Source: Promethearchaeota archaeon
GTDB lineage: Archaea; Asgardarchaeota; Lokiarchaeia; Sigyniarchaeales; SOKP01
Length of the DNA: 58,603 bases
Assembly: GCA_048938025.1 (NCBI GenBank)
Contig: JBHLMP010000017.1
Location: forward strand, 1-58,603
Reading direction: 5' to 3'
The notes beneath the pieces were generated by a model, which worked only from the letters and a program-made list of their open reading frames with translations, did no database searches and was not told the DNA's origin. The position numbers and the translations under genes are program-made. Shown here piece by piece: positions 11,227 to 23,187 of the stretch. Each line of letters starts with the position of its first letter. Positions within the stretch are counted from its first letter, which is position 1.

Positions 11227-12903
11227 TTAAATTGCCAATGGAGGATCCCAAGTTCCCCATATTTCTCTATAGATATTACACACTTCCCCAACAGTAGCTC
11301 CTTCTTTTGTCGCTTCCATGACTATGGGCATTACATTTTCCTCTTTCTCACAGACATTTCGTAGTTGATCCATTATCTTTTGTAATTTGACATTGTCTCG
11401 CCGAGCTTTTAGTTTTTCAATTCGATGAACTTCAATATCTATTGCCTCTTTATTTGTTCTAAAAACATCTGTGACTGTATCATAAGGTACAACATATTTA
11501 TTTACTCCAAGCATTATTTCATCACCACTTTCAATTTTCATTCGTCGTTTATGAAATGCATCCCTCATTTCTTTATATAGAAATCCTGAAGAAAGTGCCT
11601 TATCAATAGTGCCAACTTTCTGGATTTTATCAATATACTTCCAGACTCTTTCTTCGACTTCATCAGTTAACCATTCAATAAAATATGAACCAGCGAGAGG
11701 ATCTATTGTATTATGAATTCTGGTTTCATCTGAAATTACTTGTTGAGTTCTTAAGGCCACTAAAGCTGCTTCTTCAGATGGTAAACAAATTGCTTCATCA
11801 TAAGAATTTGTGTGTAATGATTGACATCCACCCAAATTTGCTTCTAAGGCTTGAATTGCTGTTCTCACTATATTAATTTTTGGAGATTGTGCTGTTAAAG
11901 ATGATCCAGCAGTTTGTACATGGAATCGAAAACCTAAATTCCTAGGATCTTTAACTTCATATTTATCTTTCATTAATTTATACCAAATTCTTCTAGCAGC
12001 CCTGAATTTTGCTATTTCTTCAAAGAAATCTTTGTGAGCTGCTAAATGAAAAGCTAAACGTCCAACAAAATCATCAACCTTCCATCCTCTTTCCATTAAA
12101 TTATCAATATGAGAACAAGCACTTGCAAATACAAATCCTAATTCTTGAACAGCATCAATTCCTCCTTCTCTATAATTATAGCCAGTAAAATTTATCGGAT
12201 GCCATTTAGGGACATTTTTTTGAGCTACTGTCCATTCAATAAAATCACATGCTAAGCGAAGTATATGGTTAGGAGGACTGTTCTTATAGGGAATATACCC
12301 TACCGTCATAGTTAAGATATCATTTTGAGTTGTTCCCATCAAATTTTTAATTTCATAACCCCGCATTTTCGCCATATTAAAATACATAGAGCAAACGGGA
12401 GCAGAAGTGAAAGGTTCTACTACTAAAGCTACACTAATTTTGTCTATAGGAATATCTTCAGCTAAAGCAAAAAGACTGTCAATACAATAAAGAGGCACAC
12501 CTGACGTTCCCACTTCTGGAGCTCCATCCTTATTGGTTGGATCAATTCCATTAAATGTGAGAGCATCAACTGCAGCACTAAACCCAGTTTCACCATTTTC
12601 ATAAAGAAATTTCCATCTTTTATTTGTTTCTTCAGGAGTTCCATGACCAGAAAAGAGTCTCATAGTCCATAAGCGCCCTCTATACATAGAAGGATATACA
12701 CCTCGAGTATACGGTGCTATTCCAGGAAAACTGATATCGCTTACATAATCTTTATCTTTTACATCTAAGGGAGTATAAAGTCTTTTAATAGGGATTTCAG
12801 AATCGGTTACAAATTTTACATCTCGTTCTTTTAAACTTTCATATAGCTTATCCCATTTTTCTTTTTCTTCTCTAACTTTTTCCAAATGACTTTTATCAAA
12901 CAA
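11227..12903 (-). CDS. Acyl-CoA mutase large (substrate-binding) subunit, methylmalonyl/isobutyryl-CoA mutase family, specificity unknown
   Basis: PYTRGVYPSMYRGRLWTMR, GTTQNDIL, FFEEIAKFRAARRIW, HTNSYDEA, DPLAGSYFIE. Confidence 0.93.
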   Translation of the reverse strand: MFDKSHLEKVREEKEKWDKLYESLKERDVKFVTDSEIPIKRLYTPLDVKDKDYVSDISFPGIAPYTRGVYPSMYRGRLWTMRLFSGHGTPEETNKRWKFLYENGETGFSAAVDALTFNGIDPTNKDGAPEVGTSGVPLYCIDSLFALAEDIPIDKISVALVVEPFTSAPVCSMYFNMAKMRGYEIKNLMGTTQNDILTMTVGYIPYKNSPPNHILRLACDFIEWTVAQKNVPKWHPINFTGYNYREGGIDAVQELGFVFASACSHIDNLMERGWKVDDFVGRLAFHLAAHKDFFEEIAKFRAARRIWYKLMKDKYEVKDPRNLGFRFHVQTAGSSLTAQSPKINIVRTAIQALEANLGGCQSLHTNSYDEAICLPSEEAALVALRTQQVISDETRIHNTIDPLAGSYFIEWLTDEVEERVWKYIDKIQKVGTIDKALSSGFLYKEMRDAFHKRRMKIESGDEIMLGVNKYVVPYDTVTDVFRTNKEAIDIEVHRIEKLKARRDNVKLQKIMDQLRNVCEKEENVMPIVMEATKEGATVGEVCNIYREIWGTWDPPLAI

Positions 12904-13092: not shown

Positions 13093-13842
13093 TTGATTAA
13101 TATAAATTATAAATTAAATTTTAATGAAAATCCAACAATAAAAAAAGAGGTTTTAATTATTACAGAAATAAAAAATCAAGGCTTTATGAGACATGCTTCG
13201 AAATTACTAATCGCTGGTGGGATTTTAGTAATAATTGGTATGCTGACTCCTTCATGCTATTTTACAAATGGAGGAGGATTTTTCATGTGGTATACTGGTT
13301 TTTGGGTTATGTGGTACGAGGGACCATATGGTAGGGAGACAGATTCTGGGGGTGCTAGAGATTTTTTTAATACAGAGTATGCTGCTAAATATTCAGGTCT
13401 TGGTACTAGTGTTATGATAATGTTATTTATTGCTGCAATATTGATGTTTGTATCATCAAAAAAAGCAACAGTGGGGAGAGATAACAAGGTAGCTATTGCA
13501 ACGAGTGCGATTGGTACAGTATTAGCTTTTCTCGGTCCAGGTGTATACTATGGTTATTTACAGAGTGAATTCACAAATTTTTGGGTTGCATTTGATGAAG
13601 GTATCGGTTTTTATCTTCCAATCATAGCTGGAGTTCTTGGAATTATTGCCACGAGTTTTAATATTTATGATTTTACATTAGAATCAAAAGTGGGGGAAGA
13701 ACGAGTAATTGAAAAGTACCAACCACCACCTGATAAACAGGTTGAGGTTCAAGTTCAACAAGAAGGTCTAAAATTCTGTCCAAATTGTGGTGCAAAATTG
13801 ACTGGTCCTTTTTGCCAAGAATGTGGCACAAAAGCCTATTAG
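13093..13842 (+). CDS. Membrane protein with C-terminal zinc ribbon (true start probably near 13156)
   Basis: About four TM segments and FCPNCG...FCQECG. GAGG at 13147 precedes in-frame ATT codons. Confidence 0.75.
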   Translation: MININYKLNFNENPTIKKEVLIITEIKNQGFMRHASKLLIAGGILVIIGMLTPSCYFTNGGGFFMWYTGFWVMWYEGPYGRETDSGGARDFFNTEYAAKYSGLGTSVMIMLFIAAILMFVSSKKATVGRDNKVAIATSAIGTVLAFLGPGVYYGYLQSEFTNFWVAFDEGIGFYLPIIAGVLGIIATSFNIYDFTLESKVGEERVIEKYQPPPDKQVEVQVQQEGLKFCPNCGAKLTGPFCQECGTKAY

Positions 13843-14173
13843 CCTATTTGCTTAATATTTAATTTATAAATTTTAAACAAAATAACTTTTTTTTCTAATT
13901 TTTTTCCAATTTTAATATGTAATTTCTTAACTTACCCCTCTCATTGCAGAATTTGAACTTTAAATTTAAAAGATCATATCTAAGATCTATGGGAGGTTGC
14001 TTATGAAATGATTAAAGACTCTTTAAATAAGATTTAACTTTTTTAGTGATATTTCAGATATTAAAATTTGATTTTGAAACAATTATCTATTTATATAAAA
14101 TTATTTTAGTGAATATATCAATAAGTTTATCTATCGTAAACATAACTTTTAAAAATATAATATTCACAATCTT

Positions 14174-15910
14174 ATGAGAAATCATAATAAAAAGAAGCAT
14201 CAAAGGTTTTTCCTATTTTCTATAACATTTTTTATTGTTTCTCTTAGCTTTTTATATTATTTTAGATTTCAGAGTTATTTATTATATGAAAGAATTCAAT
14301 TCAATTCATCAGGTGCCAAATTATATGCAAATCTCTTTTATCCCACTAAAAAATTAGATTTTCAAGAAAAAGCTCCTTTGATTATATATGCCCATGGTTT
14401 AGGTAGTCAAAAGGATTTAGATCCAAGAGTACCTAATGAATTTACAAAAAGAGGTTTTTATGTGGCATCCATTGATTATAGAGGTGATGGAGAAAGCGGA
14501 GGTCATCTTTTAGATATAAATTCAAATCCATATAGGAATCGAACAGGAATTCCCGCAATAGCTCAAGATTGTTCAAGATTACTAGATAAATTGTCAGATA
14601 TGTCCTTTTTTAAAGATATAAATGAATCTCAAGTGGGATTGATTGGACATTCTCTAGGAGGTATGGTTGTTTTAATGAATGGAGCCTTAGATAAGCGATT
14701 TAAGGTTACAGTAACGTGGGCAGGATTAGTAAACTTTTCAGCTAGTTATTTTGGTATAACTGATGACCACCCTTTTATGAAATTCATTCCATCTAAGATT
14801 ATTAATGAAACTAATCCCAGTAATTTAATGGTTATTCATTCTATTCATGACACAACAGTTCCTTTTAATGATAATGCATTAGTTGCAAAGAATCTAACAA
14901 ATTGTAAATTAGTTGAAATTAAAACACATCTATTTGGAGGACCTCATTATTTATTTTCTAATGTGGTAATTTCTGAGACAACAAATTGGATGGAATTAAA
15001 GTTTTTTAATTCTGAAACCATTAATGGTCCTATTAAACTAACTTATATTATAGATTTTATCTTAATAGGATTTAGTTTAGTTGGATTATTTTTAACTACC
15101 TTATCAATCATGAGATTAACCTATAAATACTTTTCAATCAAAGATTACCATAAAAGAGTTGTAAAATTAGATAAAAATGAAAAAAAAGAGAAACTATCAA
15201 ATATGAAACACTTAACTATAGCTAGCTTATGGTATGGAAGCTTCCTCACCATTTGGATTTTGTTGCTAGAATATATAGGAATACTTGCTTTAATCATTGC
15301 CCCACTTATTTTTATATTGATATATATTGTATTTGTGTTTATAAAATATATAATAAATACTGAAATAAAAGGTGAAAAATTAAGTTTATATATAAAATTT
15401 AGATTAAAAAATGAGATTAAATCTCAATTTCAGAAGAATGTTATATTATATTCTCTCTTTTCTAGTAGCGTATTTTTATCACTTTATATTAGTTTCTCTC
15501 TCTCATATCCATTTGGATTTTTTTCTCCAGCAAATATATTAGCTTATATTTTAACCTTTGAAATTTATCCATTCTATTTAGCCATGGAAATTTTTTACAG
15601 AAAAATCTTATATCCCAGACTTGTTTCCTTAAAATCCCCTACACGTAGAACAGTAGTCACATCATTAATGGAATCCGTTAACATTTTAGTTTTAATGTAT
15701 TTTTCCAGTTCATTATTTCTAATAAGTGCAATGTTTGCTACTTATTTGATATTTTTAGCAGTTATGATAATGAACTCAATTATATATGAAAGAACTAATA
15801 AGTTTAGCTCTGTTATGATAAGTTCTTTTATTATAATACAAATCTTTTTTGGCTCAGTTGTTTCAACTATATTAGGATTTGGTTCTGTTGTGCGTTTGCT
15901 TCATGTGTAG
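14174..15910 (+). CDS. Alpha/beta hydrolase with C-terminal multi-pass membrane domain
   Basis: HGLG, IDYRGDGES, GHSLGG nucleophile elbow, D..VP and H, followed by several TM helices. Confidence 0.85.
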   Translation: MRNHNKKKHQRFFLFSITFFIVSLSFLYYFRFQSYLLYERIQFNSSGAKLYANLFYPTKKLDFQEKAPLIIYAHGLGSQKDLDPRVPNEFTKRGFYVASIDYRGDGESGGHLLDINSNPYRNRTGIPAIAQDCSRLLDKLSDMSFFKDINESQVGLIGHSLGGMVVLMNGALDKRFKVTVTWAGLVNFSASYFGITDDHPFMKFIPSKIINETNPSNLMVIHSIHDTTVPFNDNALVAKNLTNCKLVEIKTHLFGGPHYLFSNVVISETTNWMELKFFNSETINGPIKLTYIIDFILIGFSLVGLFLTTLSIMRLTYKYFSIKDYHKRVVKLDKNEKKEKLSNMKHLTIASLWYGSFLTIWILLLEYIGILALIIAPLIFILIYIVFVFIKYIINTEIKGEKLSLYIKFRLKNEIKSQFQKNVILYSLFSSSVFLSLYISFSLSYPFGFFSPANILAYILTFEIYPFYLAMEIFYRKILYPRLVSLKSPTRRTVVTSLMESVNILVLMYFSSSLFLISAMFATYLIFLAVMIMNSIIYERTNKFSSVMISSFIIIQIFFGSVVSTILGFGSVVRLLHV

Positions 15911-15931: not shown

Positions 15932-17209
15932 TTATTTTAATAATTCTTTAAAGTCTTTGTCAAGTGATAATATCAATAATCGTATAACTCTACAAACATC
16001 AACAAGTATTTGTGGATCTACTTTATCTAGTGTATCTTCAATACTATGAGTATATCTAGCAGCGGCTTTAGTAGTAATATCAATTGAATTAAATTTACGT
16101 AAATGAAATGGAATAGAGTCTGTATGAGCACCAAGACTAACATGAAATCCATGATAATTTATATTTTCAATTTCTGCTGATTTATTGAAGTATTCACTTA
16201 ATATTGGTGAGATTTTCTTTCTTGGGATAATACCATAAGATTCGATATATTCTATGCGATTCTTTTTATTATTTGCTGCTGAAAGCATATCAAAATTAAT
16301 TTGATAAGTAAATTCTTTAGTAAACACCTTATCATAAGTATCTAAAAATTTTCTAGAACCCATTGTTCCTATTTCTTCAGCTGAAAATTGACAAAACCAT
16401 AATCTGAAATTATGTAGTGGATTACATTTAAAGAAAGAACTCAATTCGAAAACAACTGCCATTCCACTAGCGTTATCCAAGGCTCCTTGTGATTCATTTC
16501 CTATTTTAAGAAATAATAAAAAAAAGTTTGAAGAAATAGTTAAAATAGTCCCAATCATTATAGAAATTTCCCATAAGATAATTAGTATTTGATAATTCTC
16601 ATATATAAAATGGTAATCAATTAAAAAGAAGGTATAAAACAAAAATAAGAAAATTTCACTATATAACCAGATTCTAATTAAGACGACTCTCCATAATGTT
16701 TTAAATGATTGAGATTTTGAATCTAAATGAGCTGAAACTATTATATCTCCTATTTTTTGAGTTGATACATTAATCGCGGGTATTTCTACAAAAACATTTG
16801 TTGCTTTTAAAAATTTGCCAAAATATTTCTCCCAAAATCCCTTAAGTTCAGGATATTTTAATGCTTTGACCATTGAGAGAAAAATTAGTAATAAAATCGA
16901 GATGGAAATAAAAGTGAGAAAAGGATACAAATTTTTTATTAGTAGAATAATAGAAACAAAAATTAAGTTTATTAATATGATTATTTTGATCATTGCTTTT
17001 GAATAAAATGTGGAAAATTCAAAATTTTGAGAATGAATTTGAGAATTTTTAAAACCCTTCTCTTTAAATGTTTTAATTGTTAGATCAACTGCTTTTTTCT
17101 CTCCTTCTGTTCCAGCTAATCTAGGAAAGCTAAAAGTACTTACATAATTAAATAATGGTTTTTTATTGAAATCAAAATTCTCTGGAGATTCTTTAATAGT
17201 CATAGTCAA
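15932..17209 (-). CDS. Membrane-bound M28 family metallopeptidase
   Basis: PRLAGTEGE, SAHLDS, GALDNASG, AEEIG, NFD, HTD, HSIEDT. Confidence 0.88.
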   Translation of the reverse strand: MTMTIKESPENFDFNKKPLFNYVSTFSFPRLAGTEGEKKAVDLTIKTFKEKGFKNSQIHSQNFEFSTFYSKAMIKIIILINLIFVSIILLIKNLYPFLTFISISILLLIFLSMVKALKYPELKGFWEKYFGKFLKATNVFVEIPAINVSTQKIGDIIVSAHLDSKSQSFKTLWRVVLIRIWLYSEIFLFLFYTFFLIDYHFIYENYQILIILWEISIMIGTILTISSNFFLLFLKIGNESQGALDNASGMAVVFELSSFFKCNPLHNFRLWFCQFSAEEIGTMGSRKFLDTYDKVFTKEFTYQINFDMLSAANNKKNRIEYIESYGIIPRKKISPILSEYFNKSAEIENINYHGFHVSLGAHTDSIPFHLRKFNSIDITTKAAARYTHSIEDTLDKVDPQILVDVCRVIRLLILSLDKDFKELLK

Positions 17210-17422
17210 TTTGATATAATTTTTTTACTATTTAATATCTGATATATTCTTTAAATAACTTAATTATTAGGTTTTTAAATTTTAAACACTGGTAGTTATT
17301 AACTTTTCTGTATAACAGGTCTCAGAGGCTTTTAAAGTTGTAACTTTAACATATATAACTCCAAGATAAATACTTATTAAGATAAAAGGTAGAGAAATTA
17401 TTATATTAAAACATGATTTTCC

Positions 17423-17476
17423 TTATGATCTTGATACGTAATATCTAAATTTACCATTTAGATCGTCAATCTGCAA
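17423..17476 (-). pseudogene. Orphan 3'-end remnant of the MBL hydrolase gene (older copy)
   Basis: Translates LQIDDLNGKFRYYVSRS*, versus WQIDDESGKFRYFISRE* at the end of 20882-21697 (11/17 identical, stop in register). Confidence 0.85.
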
Positions 17477-17534
17477 GCCTTAAAACAAGTATTAAAAAGA
17501 AAAAAAATTTTATATTTATTTTTTTTTTATATTT

Positions 17535-19346
17535 TTACATATAAATATCGCCTGATCCTCCTTGAAATCCGTCAAAACCATAGCTTGAACCGCCCATACC
17601 TCCAATACCTATAGAATATAAATTATCATTTATTAAAGTGTTCGAGTTATAACAATAAACACCAAAAGATATGCCACCAGCACCACCGGCTCCTGCTCCA
17701 CCATTGCCTCCTCTTCCTCCAGCACCTCCAGCACCTCCATAATTTATCCCAACAAGTGATCCAATTCCACCAGTACCTCCATTACCCCCAGTCCCTCCAA
17801 TACCACCAATACCTCCGTTTCCTCCTTTTCCACCATTACCAGTACATATTAAATTGCGAGTAATTGTTATATTAGCTTCTATAACTAAAATACCAATTGA
17901 GCCTCCACCCGAAGTACCTCCCTTACCACCTAATGCTCCACTGCCACCACCACCGCCACCACCGCCACCACCACCAAGATATGGGATTAAAAGCAAATAA
18001 TCAACAAAACCACCACCGCCACCTCCGCCACCTCCACCTCCACCGACAAAACCATCATCACCATCATCTCCATTAACACCATACCAAAAATGACTAATAA
18101 TTGTACCATTTTCACTTCCATGTATTCCTCCATGAAATCCGTTTACTCCTGCAGTCCCATTAGCTCCTGGTTGTCCATGAGATCCTATTGCTCCTCCGCT
18201 ACCTCCTGCTCCCCCGCTACCTTCTGGCCAAGAGCCACCAACTCCATCTTGTCCATTATCACCTGCCTCTGCAGCTGGCAATGGTATTAATATTGCCATA
18301 CCACCAGCACCGCCATCTCCACCAGCGTTCCATAATGAACCTCCTGAACCAGGTGCATTAGATGGAGGTGCATATCCGTTAGATCCATTTTGGCCAGGTT
18401 GACCATTTGATCCATTAGCACCATCAGCACCATTTCCTCCATTTCCACTATAAATAATACAATTGTCTATAGTAAACATAAAATCAAAAATGTTATAGCA
18501 CCAAATTCCACAAGATGTTCCCGTAATAGCATTTCCAGTTCTTATTTCCATTGTGTTTAAGTACGTCGGGGTGTTTATATTATGAACTTTTACTCCAATA
18601 ATCTTATCATTCACTTCTTTTGTTGAATTTATGATTGGATGAGTTGATACATCTCTTGACCATAAATTTGATTCAATAAAACCTCCATAAATACTAACTC
18701 CATCAATTATCTCCACACTTCCATTATAAACTCCCTCAGAAACGTAGACATCCTTTTTTCCGTTTTCATTTGCTTTAGAAATTCCTTCGATAATACTTGC
18801 CATTGGATATGAAATATCACCTGAGTTTAAATCAGATCCATCTTCAGAAACAAAAATCGCATTATCACACATACCATCTAATCCATCATTATTGATATCT
18901 AAATAACTAGAATCAGGACGATCTAAATCTTTTGGATAAGGATTTACATCAATGTTAAGCCAAATGTCAGTGGCATTTTCAATTTTTTCTGTAGTATTAT
19001 ATCCAATGTCGATTAAAATTTGATTCAATCCAGGTCCTAAATTCATAATAATTCCCCATTTTTTAAAATTTGATTCCAAATTAATAGCATTGTTACCATT
19101 AACTAAGATTTCATCAATATCAGGAGAACCTGAGCTATTTCCTCTTATAATTACAGTTGAAGACTTTACTAATGAATTATTTTCATGTGATGTAATAGTT
19201 AAATCAAAGATATATGGCTCTTCAGGTTCTTTTTGAGTTGGGGTTTTAAAAGGATTATAAGCTACTAAAAAAATCGTTCCTGTAATTAAAATAGCAACAA
19301 TTATAACTGAAATTATATATTTTTTTTTAATCATTTTTAAATACAC
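17535..19346 (-). CDS. Exported protein with DUF1565/beta-helix-like region and glycine-rich (PE-PGRS-like) repeats
   Basis: N-terminal TM, Ig-like segment, DINNDGLDG, IFVSEDGSDLNSG..P..SI..GI..A...DVYVSEG.Y, then long GGxGGxG and poly-G tracts. Confidence 0.8.
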   Translation of the reverse strand: MYLKMIKKKYIISVIIVAILITGTIFLVAYNPFKTPTQKEPEEPYIFDLTITSHENNSLVKSSTVIIRGNSSGSPDIDEILVNGNNAINLESNFKKWGIIMNLGPGLNQILIDIGYNTTEKIENATDIWLNIDVNPYPKDLDRPDSSYLDINNDGLDGMCDNAIFVSEDGSDLNSGDISYPMASIIEGISKANENGKKDVYVSEGVYNGSVEIIDGVSIYGGFIESNLWSRDVSTHPIINSTKEVNDKIIGVKVHNINTPTYLNTMEIRTGNAITGTSCGIWCYNIFDFMFTIDNCIIYSGNGGNGADGANGSNGQPGQNGSNGYAPPSNAPGSGGSLWNAGGDGGAGGMAILIPLPAAEAGDNGQDGVGGSWPEGSGGAGGSGGAIGSHGQPGANGTAGVNGFHGGIHGSENGTIISHFWYGVNGDDGDDGFVGGGGGGGGGGGGFVDYLLLIPYLGGGGGGGGGGGSGALGGKGGTSGGGSIGILVIEANITITRNLICTGNGGKGGNGGIGGIGGTGGNGGTGGIGSLVGINYGGAGGAGGRGGNGGAGAGGAGGISFGVYCYNSNTLINDNLYSIGIGGMGGSSYGFDGFQGGSGDIYM

Positions 19347-19464
19347 TTACATGTTTGTAAATTAGATTTCTGTTTAAAAATTAAAACCTAATCTTATATA
19401 AAGTTTTTTATTCCTTAATATTGAATCAAATTATCAGAAATATTAAGTATAATATCATTAAAAA

Positions 19465-19554
19465 TTATAATTTAGAAATGAAAAATCTAAATTTACCACT
19501 CTCATCATCAATCTGTCATGCGTCAAAAAAATCAAATGGTTTCTTTTTGTCCCA
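19465..19554 (-). pseudogene. Orphan 3'-end remnant of the MBL hydrolase gene (younger copy)
   Basis: Translates WDKKKPFDFFDA*QIDDESGKFRFFISKL*, versus WDKKIVFDFFEPWQIDDESGKFRYFISRE* (20882-20971). The Trp codon has decayed to TGA at 19516-19518. Confidence 0.92.
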
Positions 19555-19811
19555 ATTCAACAAAACCTTCAGATCATCTTTAGTCTGCTGAAAAGCGAAT
19601 TTTCGAAGTTGATCTCCGTATAGTATCGATAGTACGTATAAGTCCTAATAATAAATATTGTCTCAATCGTTTTTTCTCCCATTTTCTTAACTTTTAGAGC
19701 ATTAATAATTTTAATTTTAATATTATATGAAATCTGAGTATTAAAAAATGGAGATTTAATATTCTTTGATTTATTTAAATTACTAAAATCTTTTATTTGA
19801 AATAGAATTGG

Positions 19812-20543
19812 ATGAACAACAAAAAAATTAAGACTAAAATTTCGAGAAATATTTTAGAAATTGAAAAACTTTATAGGAGATTATTAAAGAAAAAAACTGT
19901 ACGAATTTGTATTTATATAGAATTTATAGCTTTTTATCCTGGATTAATTCTGGCAATTATGATTGCTAAAAATTATAGTCCAATTGGGTATAATTTATTT
20001 CAAAACTATATTAGTGATCTGGGTTCTGTATATTTTACTCCTGCGCCTTATATTTTTAATTCTATTGTTATAATAACTTCAGTGATTACAATCCCTATTT
20101 TTATGTATCTTGAGGAGGTTCTTTGCTCTACTCTCAATAAAAATATTAAAATTATTCTTTCGTCTAAATCAACGAAAATTATTACGAAAATAGGAAAAAT
20201 TACATTTTTATTAGGTTCTATGGGATTATTTGGTATAGGGATTTTCAATGAAGATTTTCCAATAAATCAAGTGCATATATTATTTGCAACTTTAGCGTTT
20301 GGAGGATTTACATTGGGTGGAGTTATAGCAGGATTCCTTATTATTATGAAAAAAACAATAATTCCCAAATTAATTGGATATTATATGACATTTTATTCTC
20401 TTGGGCTTATATTATTAAGATTATTTCATTTCCTTCCTTTAATTACACTTTCATTTATCGAGTGGTCTTGGTTTTTAGGGATATTGATATGGTTATTACC
20501 ATTAACGCTAACATTATTGAAGCATATAGATGTAAAATCCTAA
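19812..20543 (+). CDS. DUF998-like membrane protein
   Basis: GYNLFQNYISDLG, FN, GIGIF.ED, H..FA pattern and about five TM segments. Confidence 0.75.
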   Translation: MNNKKIKTKISRNILEIEKLYRRLLKKKTVRICIYIEFIAFYPGLILAIMIAKNYSPIGYNLFQNYISDLGSVYFTPAPYIFNSIVIITSVITIPIFMYLEEVLCSTLNKNIKIILSSKSTKIITKIGKITFLLGSMGLFGIGIFNEDFPINQVHILFATLAFGGFTLGGVIAGFLIIMKKTIIPKLIGYYMTFYSLGLILLRLFHFLPLITLSFIEWSWFLGILIWLLPLTLTLLKHIDVKS

Positions 20544-20546
20544 TTA

Positions 20547-20849
20547 TTAAATTTCTTGAAGAAATTTATTAAAAAGATCCTCTTTTAGTTTATCTTTTAA
20601 AAATTTGATTTCTTCAAATTTTAAATCAAGATTTTTGGTTGAACCTGCTTTTTCAGCTTCATTTTCATATATTATTATGATTTCTTGCTCAAGCTCATAT
20701 CTTTTTAACACTTGCTCATATGCACTAAGTGGATCTAATCCTTTATCAATTTCTTTTTGTATGTTATTAGACAATTTTTCTTTAAGTATTTTAATAGTAG
20801 ATTTTTCTATGTCTTTTCTGTTTTTTTTATTAAATTTGGAGATCTTCAA
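20547..20849 (-). CDS. Hypothetical charged helical protein
   Basis: 100-aa Lys/Glu-rich ORF preceded by AAGGTGA, directly after the MBL gene. Confidence 0.6.
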   Translation of the reverse strand: MKISKFNKKNRKDIEKSTIKILKEKLSNNIQKEIDKGLDPLSAYEQVLKRYELEQEIIIIYENEAEKAGSTKNLDLKFEEIKFLKDKLKEDLFNKFLQEI

Positions 20850-20881
20850 TCACCTTACTTCTATAATTATTTAACTATTAT

Positions 20882-21697
20882 TTATTCTCTTGATATAAAA
20901 TATCTGAATTTACCACTCTCATCATCAATTTGCCATGGTTCAAAGAAATCAAATACAATCTTTTTATCCCATAGATTCTCAATATTTTTAATACCATTAT
21001 AAAGATCTGTTAAAAGTGTCTTATCACATGGATAATTTCTATGTGAAGGATAAAGTTCAAGATTTTCTTGTTCTTCACACAACTTTATCAATTTAGAAAG
21101 AGTTTTAAGAACTTGAGGAAAATTTTCTTTTTTCGGTAAAAATTGATCTCCATAATATGCCACATCACTAGTAAACAGTTCATCTTTATTAGTAAGCAAA
21201 CAAATTGAACCAGGAGAATGTCCTGGACAATGAATAACTTCTACCTCAATATCACCTAAATCAAACTTATATCCATCTTTTAGTGATCTAATTTTTTTTG
21301 CTGGAGGGATTAAAAAATTCTGTTCTGCATATATTTTTACTATTTTATTAGGAGAATCCTTGAAGTACGAAACATCATATGGATTTGAAACAATAGCAGC
21401 TTCGTTTTCATGAACATATACTTCACCAAATTCCTCATTTCCTAAAATATGATCCCAATGAGTATGAGTATTGAATATTAATAGCTTTTTTTCACCTATA
21501 AGCGCATCAACTACTGGTTTGAGAGGATGTAATCCGCATCCCGTATCAAGTAAAAGAGCTGTATGAGTTCCTAGGAGTAAATACATATTAAGTGGATCAT
21601 TTGTATAAACTGGATGAACAGCAGAAATATTTTCTTTAATTACATATAAATAGTCTTTATGTTTTGAAATTTCGAAATGTTGGTTTTCATTGTTCAT
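20882..21697 (-). CDS. Metallo-beta-lactamase-fold hydrolase
   Basis: LDTG, THTHWDHILG (HxHxDH), PGHSPGS, LFTSD, PSH. Confidence 0.92.
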   Translation of the reverse strand: MNNENQHFEISKHKDYLYVIKENISAVHPVYTNDPLNMYLLLGTHTALLLDTGCGLHPLKPVVDALIGEKKLLIFNTHTHWDHILGNEEFGEVYVHENEAAIVSNPYDVSYFKDSPNKIVKIYAEQNFLIPPAKKIRSLKDGYKFDLGDIEVEVIHCPGHSPGSICLLTNKDELFTSDVAYYGDQFLPKKENFPQVLKTLSKLIKLCEEQENLELYPSHRNYPCDKTLLTDLYNGIKNIENLWDKKIVFDFFEPWQIDDESGKFRYFISRE

Positions 21698-22029: not shown

Positions 22030-23187
22030 ATGGATTTCTCGTTAAACGAAAAACAAAAGATGTTGAAGAAAATTACGCGGGATTTTGCTGAGGAATATAT
22101 TGTACCTGTAGCGAAGGAAAGCGACGAAAAGCAAGAATTAGATTCAGCTACATTCAAAAAAATGCAAGAAATGAATTATTTTGGTGTTTGTCTACCAGAA
22201 GAATTTGGTGGAGCCGGACTTCATAATGATACAATAGGTTTTAGTATAGTTGTTGAAGAAATCTCGCGTGCGGATGCAGCTTGGGGAATCACCATTGCTG
22301 TGCATAATGGCGTTGTAGCTTATCCTCTTTATAAATTTGGGACTGAAGACCAAAAAAAAAATTATTTAGAAGATCTAGCAAAAGGTAACAAAGTAGGAGC
22401 TTTTTGTTTAACTGAACCAAATGCCGGTTCGGATGCGGGAGGAGTGCAATTAACAGCAGTTAAAGATGGAGATGAATACATTTTAAATGGGACAAAAATC
22501 TTCTCTACATCAGGAGGTATAGCTAAGACGTTGTTAGTTGTAGCAAAAACGGGAGAAAAAGATAGTAGGAGAGAATTAACAGTTTTTATTGTAGATGGTG
22601 ATACCCCTGGATATTCAGTTGGAGTAAAAGAAGATAAGTTAGGTGTTAGAGCCTCAAATACTTCAGAACTTGTATTCGAAGATGTTCGAGTATCTCAAGA
22701 GAATATTTTGGGAGGCATTGGAGAGGGTTTCAAAATGGCATTGAAAATTTTAGATTTCGGAAGAATAGGTATTGCCGCTCAGTGTGTGGGTTTAGGACAA
22801 GCAGCACTAGAAGCTTCAGTCAAATATTCAAATGAGAGAGTTCAGTTCGGACAACCTATAGGGAGATTTCAAGGAATACAATGGAAAATAGCGGATATGG
22901 CTTGTGCAGTGGAATCAGCTCGATTATTCACATATAAAGCAGCTTATTTACATGATATAGGAGAAGATTTTGTAATAGCTAGCTCAATGGCGAAATTAGT
23001 TGCCTCCGAAGCTGCAATGCTAGCTGCTCATGGTGCTGTTCAAATCCATGGAGGATATGGATTAATGAAAGCATATCCCGTAGAAAGATATTTCCGTGAC
23101 GCAAAGATGGGTGAAATCTATGAAGGAACAAGTGAAATTCAAAGATTAGTAATTGCACGCAATCTTTTAACAAAGGGAGTGAAATAA
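22030..23187 (+). CDS. Acyl-CoA dehydrogenase (short-chain/Bcd-like)
   Basis: GAFCLTEPNAGSD, LNGTKIF, RIGIAAQ, RVQFG, QIHGGYG, IYEGTSEIQ. Confidence 0.95.
   Translation: MDFSLNEKQKMLKKITRDFAEEYIVPVAKESDEKQELDSATFKKMQEMNYFGVCLPEEFGGAGLHNDTIGFSIVVEEISRADAAWGITIAVHNGVVAYPLYKFGTEDQKKNYLEDLAKGNKVGAFCLTEPNAGSDAGGVQLTAVKDGDEYILNGTKIFSTSGGIAKTLLVVAKTGEKDSRRELTVFIVDGDTPGYSVGVKEDKLGVRASNTSELVFEDVRVSQENILGGIGEGFKMALKILDFGRIGIAAQCVGLGQAALEASVKYSNERVQFGQPIGRFQGIQWKIADMACAVESARLFTYKAAYLHDIGEDFVIASSMAKLVASEAAMLAAHGAVQIHGGYGLMKAYPVERYFRDAKMGEIYEGTSEIQRLVIARNLLTKGVK

Follow-up and report, generated by a model that had tools for sequence, protein, structure and literature searches.

How does the end of one gene come to stand several times in a row, with unrelated genes between the copies? 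This question is raised by a 58,603-nucleotide (nt) stretch of DNA (the window), contig JBHLMP010000017.1 of assembly GCA_048938025.1, from the genome of a Promethearchaeota archaeon of the Lokiarchaeia (lineage SOKP01). In the window, an intact gene for a metallo-beta-lactamase (MBL)-fold hydrolase is followed on the same strand by shortened copies of its own 3' end, separated by blocks of other genes (the cargo). An earlier interpretation of the window (the sequence-only reading) had proposed that incoming DNA repeatedly supplied a new 3' end plus cargo and pushed the old end downstream, giving a time-ordered array. We analyzed both the window and its genome (G000; 3.52 Mb in 88 contigs) together with 53 other genomes of the genus (54 in all), and the accretion reading proved largely right. 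The array was probably built by serial, integrase-free displacement of the MBL gene by incoming related DNA.

Copies of the MBL gene end in the window

The intact MBL protein matches PF00753 with 53.6 bits against a curated cut-off of 22.7 (E 3.7e-14), and its translation contains THTHWDH, an instance of the HxHxDH metal-binding motif that we take to define the metallo-beta-lactamase fold. The end of the gene (tail t1) recurs in the same orientation as two 5'-truncated tails, t2 and t3 (Table 1). The t2 translation runs through WDKKKPFDFFDA and QIDDESGKFRFFISKL, which are separated by a TGA in place of a TGG tryptophan codon, as compared with WDKKIVFDFFEPWQIDDESGKFRYFISRE at the end of the intact gene, while t3 translates to LQIDDLNGKFRYYVSRS. 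The final stop codons of both tails are in register. These copies, their stops and the single Trp-to-TGA decay in t2 had been described in the sequence-only reading, and all of them are borne out by the translations, repeat searches, E-values and shuffling tests.

The repeat search identified a 66-nt family with three copies (17423-17488, 19465-19530 and 20882-20947; 71-73% to the reference copy) and a 106-nt pair with 76% identity (19449-19554 and 20866-20971). Tails t1 and t2 share 80% nt identity, and 40 of 52 nt are identical between t1 and t3. In a tblastn search of the last 60 MBL residues against the whole 3.52-Mb genome, t2 was found with an E-value of 1.4e-9 and t3 with 0.014. A hidden Markov model (HMM) of the tail, run over 20 loci in six frames, gave 9.6e-12 for t2 and 4.5e-4 for t3, and its best match outside MBL genes and fragments reached 0.14. 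The DNA scores of t2 and t3 were each reached by none of 300 shuffles. Between the window tails, homology is lost no more than about 10 nt from the stop codon, and nothing is alike further 3'. Longer decayed MBL copies on the 5' side of t2 (257 nt) or t3 (58 nt) were rejected, with scores reached by 189 and 245 of 300 shuffles, respectively. A ranking of the tails by likeness to 18 orthologues was also abandoned, as the tails are too short to resolve it.

The sequence-only reading counted three copies; these are real, but the array appears to have four layers. The segment 13944-13700 aligns over 245 nt (80-81%) with the MBL tail end, the spacer and the 3' end of a c19-like gene in genome G043, and its coding part is identical to the G043 MBL tail at 27 of 35 nt, a score reached by 2 of 500 shuffles. 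This alignment suggests that t4 is a fourth MBL remnant, at the junction with the ancestral neighbour c19, though the case for it is weak on its own.

The array is not a misassembly, which had been named as an observation that would speak against accretion, as far as the listed pieces of other assemblies reach. Contigs from four other sequencing runs (X2-X5; X4 and X5 come from other studies, three studies in all) bridge the tail junctions. The stretch from M28 through t3 to the end of the Gly-rich gene is covered by X2 (16879-17864) and X3 (17099-17651), the start of the Gly-rich gene and t2 by X5 (19235-19481), the stretch from t2 through the cargo to the MBL end by X2 (19449-20935, one difference), and the junction of hyp100 and MBL by X5 (20778-21145) and X4 (20757-20947). 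For 17865-19234, inside the repetitive Gly-rich gene, no bridging piece is among those listed.

Table 1 Features of the MBL array and its frame in the window.
Feature	Position	Strand	Remarks
Acyl-CoA dehydrogenase	22030..23187	+	Conserved proximal frame with ETF genes; Pfam run on the G069 orthologue
Intact MBL-fold hydrolase, 271 aa	20882..21697	-	PF00753; last 30 codons (20882-20971) are tail t1
hyp100, 100-aa hypothetical protein, cargo block 1	20547..20849	-	No Pfam family
DUF998 membrane protein, cargo block 1	19812..20543	+	PF06197, 1.6e-9
H+-pyrophosphatase (PPase) gene 3' end	19649..19713	+	5'-truncated, ~21 codons; PPase is PF03030
MBL tail t2	19465..19554	-	29 codons and stop, one TGG to TGA; 5'-cut at codon 243
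Gly-rich gene (GlyR), 603 aa, cargo block 2	17535..19346	-	No Pfam family; G003-homologous block 17490-19405
MBL tail t3	17423..17476	-	17 codons and stop; 5'-cut near codon 254
M28 peptidase, cargo block 3	15932..17209	-	PF04389, 8.6e-21
S9/alpha-beta hydrolase with membrane part, cargo block 3	14174..15910	+	PF00326, 3.6e-11
Putative MBL tail t4	~13907..13955	-	~12-16 decayed codons (ERGKLRNYILKL); 5'-cut near codon 258
Zinc-ribbon gene c19, neighbour kept by t4	13093..13842	+	Weak DZR/zinc-ribbon Pfam hits
Methylmalonyl-CoA mutase	11227..12903	-	PF01642; first gene of conserved distal frame (mutase, B12-binding protein, MeaB)

The MBL locus in related genomes

Orthologues of the MBL protein with 71-82% identity were found in at least 45 of the 53 other genomes among the matches listed, beside 218 further, weaker matches. 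Among the listed matches, none of the 54 genomes carries tandem full-length MBL orthologues; three such paralogs in relatives would have pointed to simple decay. Of the 19 mapped loci, 12 have an acyl-CoA dehydrogenase gene next to MBL or close to it, followed by ETF genes if the locus extends to them, and the far side is formed by the mutase/B12-binding/MeaB genes or by a gene pair, c12-c13. The trio lies past the variable stretch in six of the 19 mapped relatives and also in G043 and G069. Between MBL and the distal set lie one to six variable genes, including hydrolases, histidine kinases, a Gly-rich gene and a 502-aa gene, presumably an aldehyde dehydrogenase (ALDH; the label is our own). 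Many MBL genes lie near contig ends, as expected for a strain-variable spot. In the one-contig genome G023 (L030), a run of N starts within the last MBL codons and may mark a gap in the assembly of the variable spot.

An intact MBL gene with a downstream C-terminal fragment is present in at least four of the 54 genomes (G000, G007, G069 and G043). The G007 fragment starts at codon ~172 and lies 3.8 kb downstream, behind a histidine kinase and a dehydrogenase-like gene. The G069 fragment starts at codon ~212 and comprises 178 nt at 85%, with homology ending 2 nt past the stop codon; its 8.5-kb cargo includes two PAS kinases, PIN/ParE-like genes and VapBC. Both remnants directly precede the conserved distal gene sets. 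G043 carries two extra MBL tails of 82-89% identity, whose homology continues for 190-195 nt past the stop. No further tails were found in the loci of the 19 relatives except in G007, and none in nine metagenome loci, where the downstream flanks are short.

Each window tail keeps a neighbour that is seen behind an intact MBL gene elsewhere, which supports repeated displacement. Tail t4 is followed by c19, matching MBL and the c19-type gene in G043, where the 186-aa open reading frame (ORF) directly behind MBL in the array is 81.5% identical to c19. Behind t2, at a distance of 60 nt, comes the Gly-rich block, and G003 has the same block behind its intact MBL gene, with 70% identity over GlyR residues 5-314. 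Tail t3 is followed by M28, and an X2 contig (depth 15.2) joins window position 19500 to 17234 with 36 letters between them. Read in the MBL frame, these letters finish a normal tail (of the type without two extra codons) and a stop, and ten letters after the stop begins the DNA that lies 25 nt upstream of M28. This junction reads as a complete MBL tail, so a relative in the X2 sample has an intact MBL gene directly before M28. Other joints from the runs (sides of 21-37 letters, 88% likeness) were left out of the evidence.

In a comparison across loci L021-L039, the five genomes nearest by the dehydrogenase (88-93%) are no nearer than the rest by MBL (69-82%), and this discordance indicates that the two adjacent genes have different histories. 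Searches of JGI metagenomes returned no same-species contigs, the best MBL identity being 83%.

Some further loci showed truncated genes. In G003 (L029 4897-5196), the last 100 codons of the 502-aa dehydrogenase-like gene lie between MBL and the Gly-rich gene. In G061 (L049 10304-10512), an internal deletion has left MBL with 21 codons at its start and 48 at its end, and no intact MBL orthologue was found in this genome, which is 97% complete. An MBL fragment on contig C30 of G022 (query residues 139-270) was set aside because its locus holds a gap of ten N.

Origin of the cargo

The gene identities given in the sequence-only reading (a DUF998 gene, a 100-aa hypothetical protein and a Gly-rich protein) were confirmed by the Pfam scan (Table 1), and the cargo blocks are mutually unrelated. 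The cargo had been described as accessory genes, but it is not a set of free cassettes: two of the three blocks are pieces of one conserved chromosomal neighbourhood. This neighbourhood (locus A) is found in six relatives (G065, G057, G052, G014, G044 and G024) in the order S9 and M28 (pair S9>M28<), two genes, a phosphorylase-like gene, PPase, a 212-aa gene and then small GTPase genes. In some of these genomes, DUF998 and hyp100 lie between the 212-aa gene and the GTPase genes. The hyp100-DUF998-PPase tail block and the M28-S9 block correspond to the two ends of locus A, and in the window t3-GlyR-t2 occupies the place of its middle. The donors may have carried locus A next to MBL, or one large piece may have arrived and been interrupted later. 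The phosphorylase-like gene, PPase, the 212-aa gene and the GTPases are present on contig C74 of G000, without DUF998 and hyp100.

Homologues of hyp100 occur in nine of the 53 genomes among the matches listed, none of them on an MBL-bearing contig, and the hyp100 region shares DNA homology with G005 over 20546-20867, ending 14 nt from the MBL stop codon. Orthologues of DUF998 (64-69%) were found only in G057 and G065, where they stand behind the PPase and 212-aa genes. In the window, DUF998 directly follows the PPase tail, which lies back to back with t2, 94 nt apart. Over 65 nt, the PPase tail has 86% identity with the end of G000's own PPase gene (C74:3706-3770; E 5e-15 genome-wide), and 73-78% with the PPase ends of G057, G005, G045 and G052. 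The cargo is ordinary chromosomal DNA that carries a cut gene end of its own, which supports displacement without an integrase.

The locus-A genes vary in other genomes as well. In G052 (L055 5426-5505), an 80-nt remnant of the DUF998 3' end is present and the gene itself is missing. PPase was searched in G043, G012 and G063; it is missing in two of them and split over two contigs in the third. G012 and G043, which are among the nearest relatives at the C87 locus, lack an orthologue of the locus-A PPase (a 39% paralogue is the only match) and G012 also lacks an MBL orthologue; both neighbourhoods are patchy within the genus.

Similar scars elsewhere in the genome

The last 60 residues of 2818 ORFs were compared with the G000 genome, and 25 orphan hits were obtained within 40 kb on the same contig. 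Besides MBL, we examined the loci on contigs C87, C72, C23, C42 and C10; those on C49, C51, C53, C66, C38, C70 and others were left out. C87, C72 and C23 each carry a downstream tail on the strand of the gene. On C87 (L040; 42848-43027, 53912-55393), the end of a lipoamide-dehydrogenase-like gene is copied 10.9 kb downstream (179 nt at 91%), and ten opposite-strand genes lie between, including those for a SIR2-TPR protein (a possible defence gene) and a longin-domain protein, with no integrase. In G012, the lpdA and Fer4 genes of this case lie 24 kb apart. The tail of a sugar epimerase/dehydratase gene on C72 (29699-29809; 110 nt at 87%) has an FkbM methyltransferase gene as cargo, and a same-strand downstream tail on C23 (1910-2159; 249 nt at 86%) has one for a NosD-type beta-helix protein. 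The copies on C42 (18583-19897; a Ras-type GTPase with two extra tails) and C10 (38135-38466) are tandem duplications, and they extend into the gene next to them.

A corresponding scan for gene heads gave 38 orphan hits, five of which were viewed closely. Two were whole paralogues and two lay at N gaps; one, on C76, is a true 5' duplicate. Here the first 40 codons of a 171-aa gene together with 44 nt of upstream DNA are duplicated at 88% (63969-64132 and 62896-63059), about 1 kb upstream of the gene and with a 217-aa gene between.

Divergence and joints of the tails

The divergence of t1 and t2 resembles that of two alleles. They differ at 18 positions, ten of them third positions and seven silent, and the ratio of nonsynonymous to synonymous divergence (pN/pS) is 0.24. 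The tail pairs of C87, C72, C23 and G069 gave 0.22, 0.15, 0.27 and 0.14, and third positions account for 68 of the 123 differences in all five pairs together. Working orthologous tails compared with t1 have a median of 0.22 (17 pairs, one of them misaligned), and a neutral local copy is expected, by our own estimate, at roughly 0.5-0.6. The tail values lie near the orthologue median, and most of the divergence therefore arose while both copies were under selection. By its sequence, t2 resembles another lineage's working allele, apart from one nonsense change.

The end of the homology distinguishes the tails from tandem duplicates. Relative to the stop codon, it lies at -10 nt for C87, +2 for C72, -8 for C23 and +2 for G069, whereas in true tandem duplications (the extra G043 tails, C42 and C10) it continues beyond the stop for 39-250 nt. 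No resemblance to the c19-type unit is seen in the spacers that follow t1, t2 and t3, the scores being reached by 10 to 150 of 200 shuffles. At the other side, the remnants start at varying codons, ~172 in G007, 212 in G069, 243 in t2, 254 in t3 and 258 in t4, although later trimming of the remnants could blur a fixed crossover position.

No integrase was found in the window by the sequence-only reading, and the Pfam scan agrees: integrase and transposase families are absent from 47 of the 49 window ORFs of at least 80 aa, the other two, which lay outside the scan, being the acyl-CoA dehydrogenase and ETF-beta genes. The same families are absent from 38 ORFs of the other tail loci of G000 and from 22 ORFs of G069, G043, G061 and G022. 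One PF00589 gene is present in G000, on contig C33, not in the window. No serine recombinase or casposase was found in the Pfam scans of the listed ORFs, and no genome-wide search was aimed at either. Searches of the window for tRNA genes and Rfam families returned none.

Proposed mechanism and alternatives

These results can be arranged in one scheme. The stretch from MBL to the mutase operon would be a recombination hotspot, where at least three times DNA of a related lineage would have replaced the resident copy, bringing an MBL allele (or its 3' part) and different downstream genes. One crossover would have been homologous, in or upstream of MBL, and the other end of the incoming DNA would have been fused to the resident MBL gene by an illegitimate joint within its last 13-30 codons. 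The resident 5' part would thereby be lost, and its tail and own downstream genes would be kept and pushed away from the live gene. The layers, newest first, would be: MBL with hyp100, DUF998 and the PPase tail; t2 with the Gly-rich gene; t3 with M28 and S9; and t4 with c19 and the mutase. Homology-facilitated illegitimate recombination, whose expected outcome fits, may account for the joining, and a single crossover with a tail-bearing circular piece would do so equally well. The tails, their truncation and neighbours, the missing integrase and the allele-like divergence are observed; the one-sided homologous and illegitimate joining, the donors and the time order are what we infer. The sequence-only reading had a new 3' end arriving with its cargo; incoming DNA did leave the old end downstream, but the data fit a new 3' end or a whole allele alike, and we favour the arrival of the whole MBL allele or a large part of it.

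Several observations weigh against this scheme. The pN/pS of t1-t3 (0.36) and t2-t3 (0.46) is based on 13-14 differences, too few to decide. The gene has 271 codons, and all three G000 joints are found among the final 30, whereas illegitimate joints made at random would not be expected to cluster in this way. The likeness of t4 to the MBL gene of G000 itself is weak (score reached by 8 of 300 shuffles), and the X2 variant is a single joint, seen in one contig and matched at 88% likeness without stated side lengths; its run comes from the same study as the likely source run. The relatives are all distant (MBL at most 83%), and a same-species empty site was therefore not seen. Among the matches listed, MBL stands beside hyp100 or DUF998 in none of the 54 genomes, which leaves the donor of the newest layer hypothetical. 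C74 begins inside a gene, and the locus-A genes f0 and f5 were not found in the assembly. As to the claimed time order, repeated arrival and an ordered array stand, but the order rests on position only, as the divergence values do not rank the tails. Finally, both locus-A pieces keep the order and orientation of the relatives, which hints at one larger transfer later broken up rather than at independent events.

The last two points would also be in keeping with one or two complex events, in which a donor with a ready multi-layer array, or one large piece of the PPase neighbourhood interrupted afterwards, produced the whole arrangement and position would not mean age; M28-S9 and PPase tail-DUF998-hyp100 are arranged as in the six relatives. 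However, three different MBL-neighbour adjacencies are found separately in relatives, as fits stepwise states, and t2-GlyR-t3 between the locus-A pieces still needs the arrival of MBL-bearing DNA, so we consider this course improbable. A duplication in place, by tandem segmental or long target duplications that copied the tail, followed by neutral decay and later exchange of the genes between, is suggested by the tandem units of a tail and a convergent small gene in G043, C42 and C10, G043 being a close relative at other loci. It is nevertheless unlikely for the window, where the homology stops at the stop codon, the spacers are unlike the c19-type unit, the blocks between are unrelated to each other and the t1-t2 pN/pS equals that of working orthologues rather than the neutral estimate.

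Decayed site-specific islands would explain other features. Integrase-bearing elements with an attachment site in the MBL 3' end and a replacement tail may have stacked here and lost their integrases later; such elements leave behind direct repeats of a target 3' end and a restored reading frame (both present here), and they stack at one gene. The gene was struck in at least four of 54 genomes, the G000 joints are clustered, and modules such as the VapBC and PIN/ParE-like genes of G069 are common on islands. The differing 5' ends of the remnants weigh against islands because one attachment core would give one end. Moreover, no cargo examined holds an integrase and the genome has a single PF00589 gene, the cargo consists of pieces of a chromosomal neighbourhood including the cut PPase end rather than of element genes, and there are stumps of other gene ends (the ALDH-labelled gene in G003, DUF998 in G052) and the 5' head duplicate on C76; we regard this origin as quite unlikely. 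Chance similarity or an assembly artefact is hardly credible: the DNA is AT-rich (31% G+C in the window, 29% in the genome) and t3 and t4 are short, but the shuffling and E-value tests and the contigs of runs from three studies that bridge the junctions speak against both.

Comparison with known systems

Elements that restore the gene into which they integrate include e14 and phage 21 at icd, and ICESt1/ICESt3 and related cis-mobilizable elements (CIMEs), which accrete with integrative and conjugative elements (ICEs) at the 3' end of fda; a tyrosine integrase acts there at one fixed crossover core. As in the MBL array, a replacement 3' end is brought in, the old end comes to lie at the far side and one gene is used repeatedly. 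Unlike these elements, the array shows no integrase and has varying cut points, so that it differs in two of the three features compared and shares the restored direct repeat. Tycheposon islands of Prochlorococcus reportedly arise by repeated insertion of recombinase-bearing elements at one tRNA site, with partial tRNA remnants as scars. The MBL locus resembles them as a hypervariable island with leftover partial target copies, but has no tRNA in its window.

The closest likeness is to bacterial toxin loci, so that the array is not new in kind of mechanism. For the sequential displacement of effector-immunity modules of the T6SS (type VI secretion system) in Vibrio cholerae, and of C-terminal ends in rhs and contact-dependent inhibition (CDI) loci, homology-facilitated illegitimate recombination was put forward in the part of PMC5361080 considered here, which cites Jackson 2009, de Vries & Wackernagel 2002, Prudhomme 2002 and Meier & Wackernagel 2003. 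According to the same part, behind a live gene stand 5'-cut 3' ends on the same strand, and each has kept the gene that used to follow it; no integrase is involved, the newest end lies next to the live gene and intermediates occur in other strains (PMC5361080). New modules come from other strains there, and here the displaced t2 is allele-like (pN/pS 0.24). The difference lies in the function: those ends encode variable toxin domains and are kept with immunity genes, their retention being explained in that account by selection for immunity (PMC5361080), whereas the MBL tail is conserved over 17 orthologues and belongs to an ordinary hydrolase of an Asgard host without toxin/immunity logic. The cargo here consists of a peptidase, a hydrolase, a DUF998 protein and a Gly-rich protein, with no variable toxin C-termini paired with immunity genes. 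An integron parallel is also drawn in that part of PMC5361080, new units entering beside a fixed point and pushing older ones back; unlike an integron, the MBL array has no adjoining IntI-type integrase, and its repeats are coding tails of the neighbouring gene rather than attC sites.

The Asgard mobile elements described in the portions of the literature considered are viruses, plasmid-like elements and tRNA-targeting transposons. Aloposons and the Atabeyarchaeia elements were set aside, since these accounts describe integrase-bearing elements with tRNAs or short motifs as their targets. A limited search of this mobile-element literature, in the parts seen, gave no description of displaced gene tails in Asgard genomes, which is not proof of their absence.

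Implications for gene gain

Little is known of gene exchange in Asgard archaea, and at the MBL locus ordinary chromosomal genes appear to have been added layer by layer behind one conserved gene that has no recombinase of its own. Tail scars offer a cheap way to find hotspots of gene gain and to order events in metagenome-assembled genomes. It is possible, if doubtful, that homology-anchored displacement without an integrase is a routine way of gene uptake from relatives in Lokiarchaeia-type Asgard archaea, and that the clustering of joints reflects the recombination machinery. If so, leftover tails, and more rarely heads, would form a readable stratigraphy, in which gene gains at many loci could be ordered, traced to their source and roughly dated, and the clustering of joints in the last codons would be a sign of some specific feature of that machinery at the end of homology.

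Other features of the window and genome

The sole mobile-element name in the Pfam scan of the window was a P-loop match to IstB_IS21, below interest, in a corrinoid adenosyltransferase gene. GTPases of the Ras, Arf and Gtr1/RagA types and a longin-domain gene are present in G000 and its relatives. Two plus-strand "ORFs", 19421-19591 (56 aa) and 20757-21002 (81 aa), are the antisense of t2 and of the MBL tail and not genes; they are alike because both read antisense through copies of the MBL tail. Annotators should be aware that short "ORFs" such as 19421-19591 are debris.

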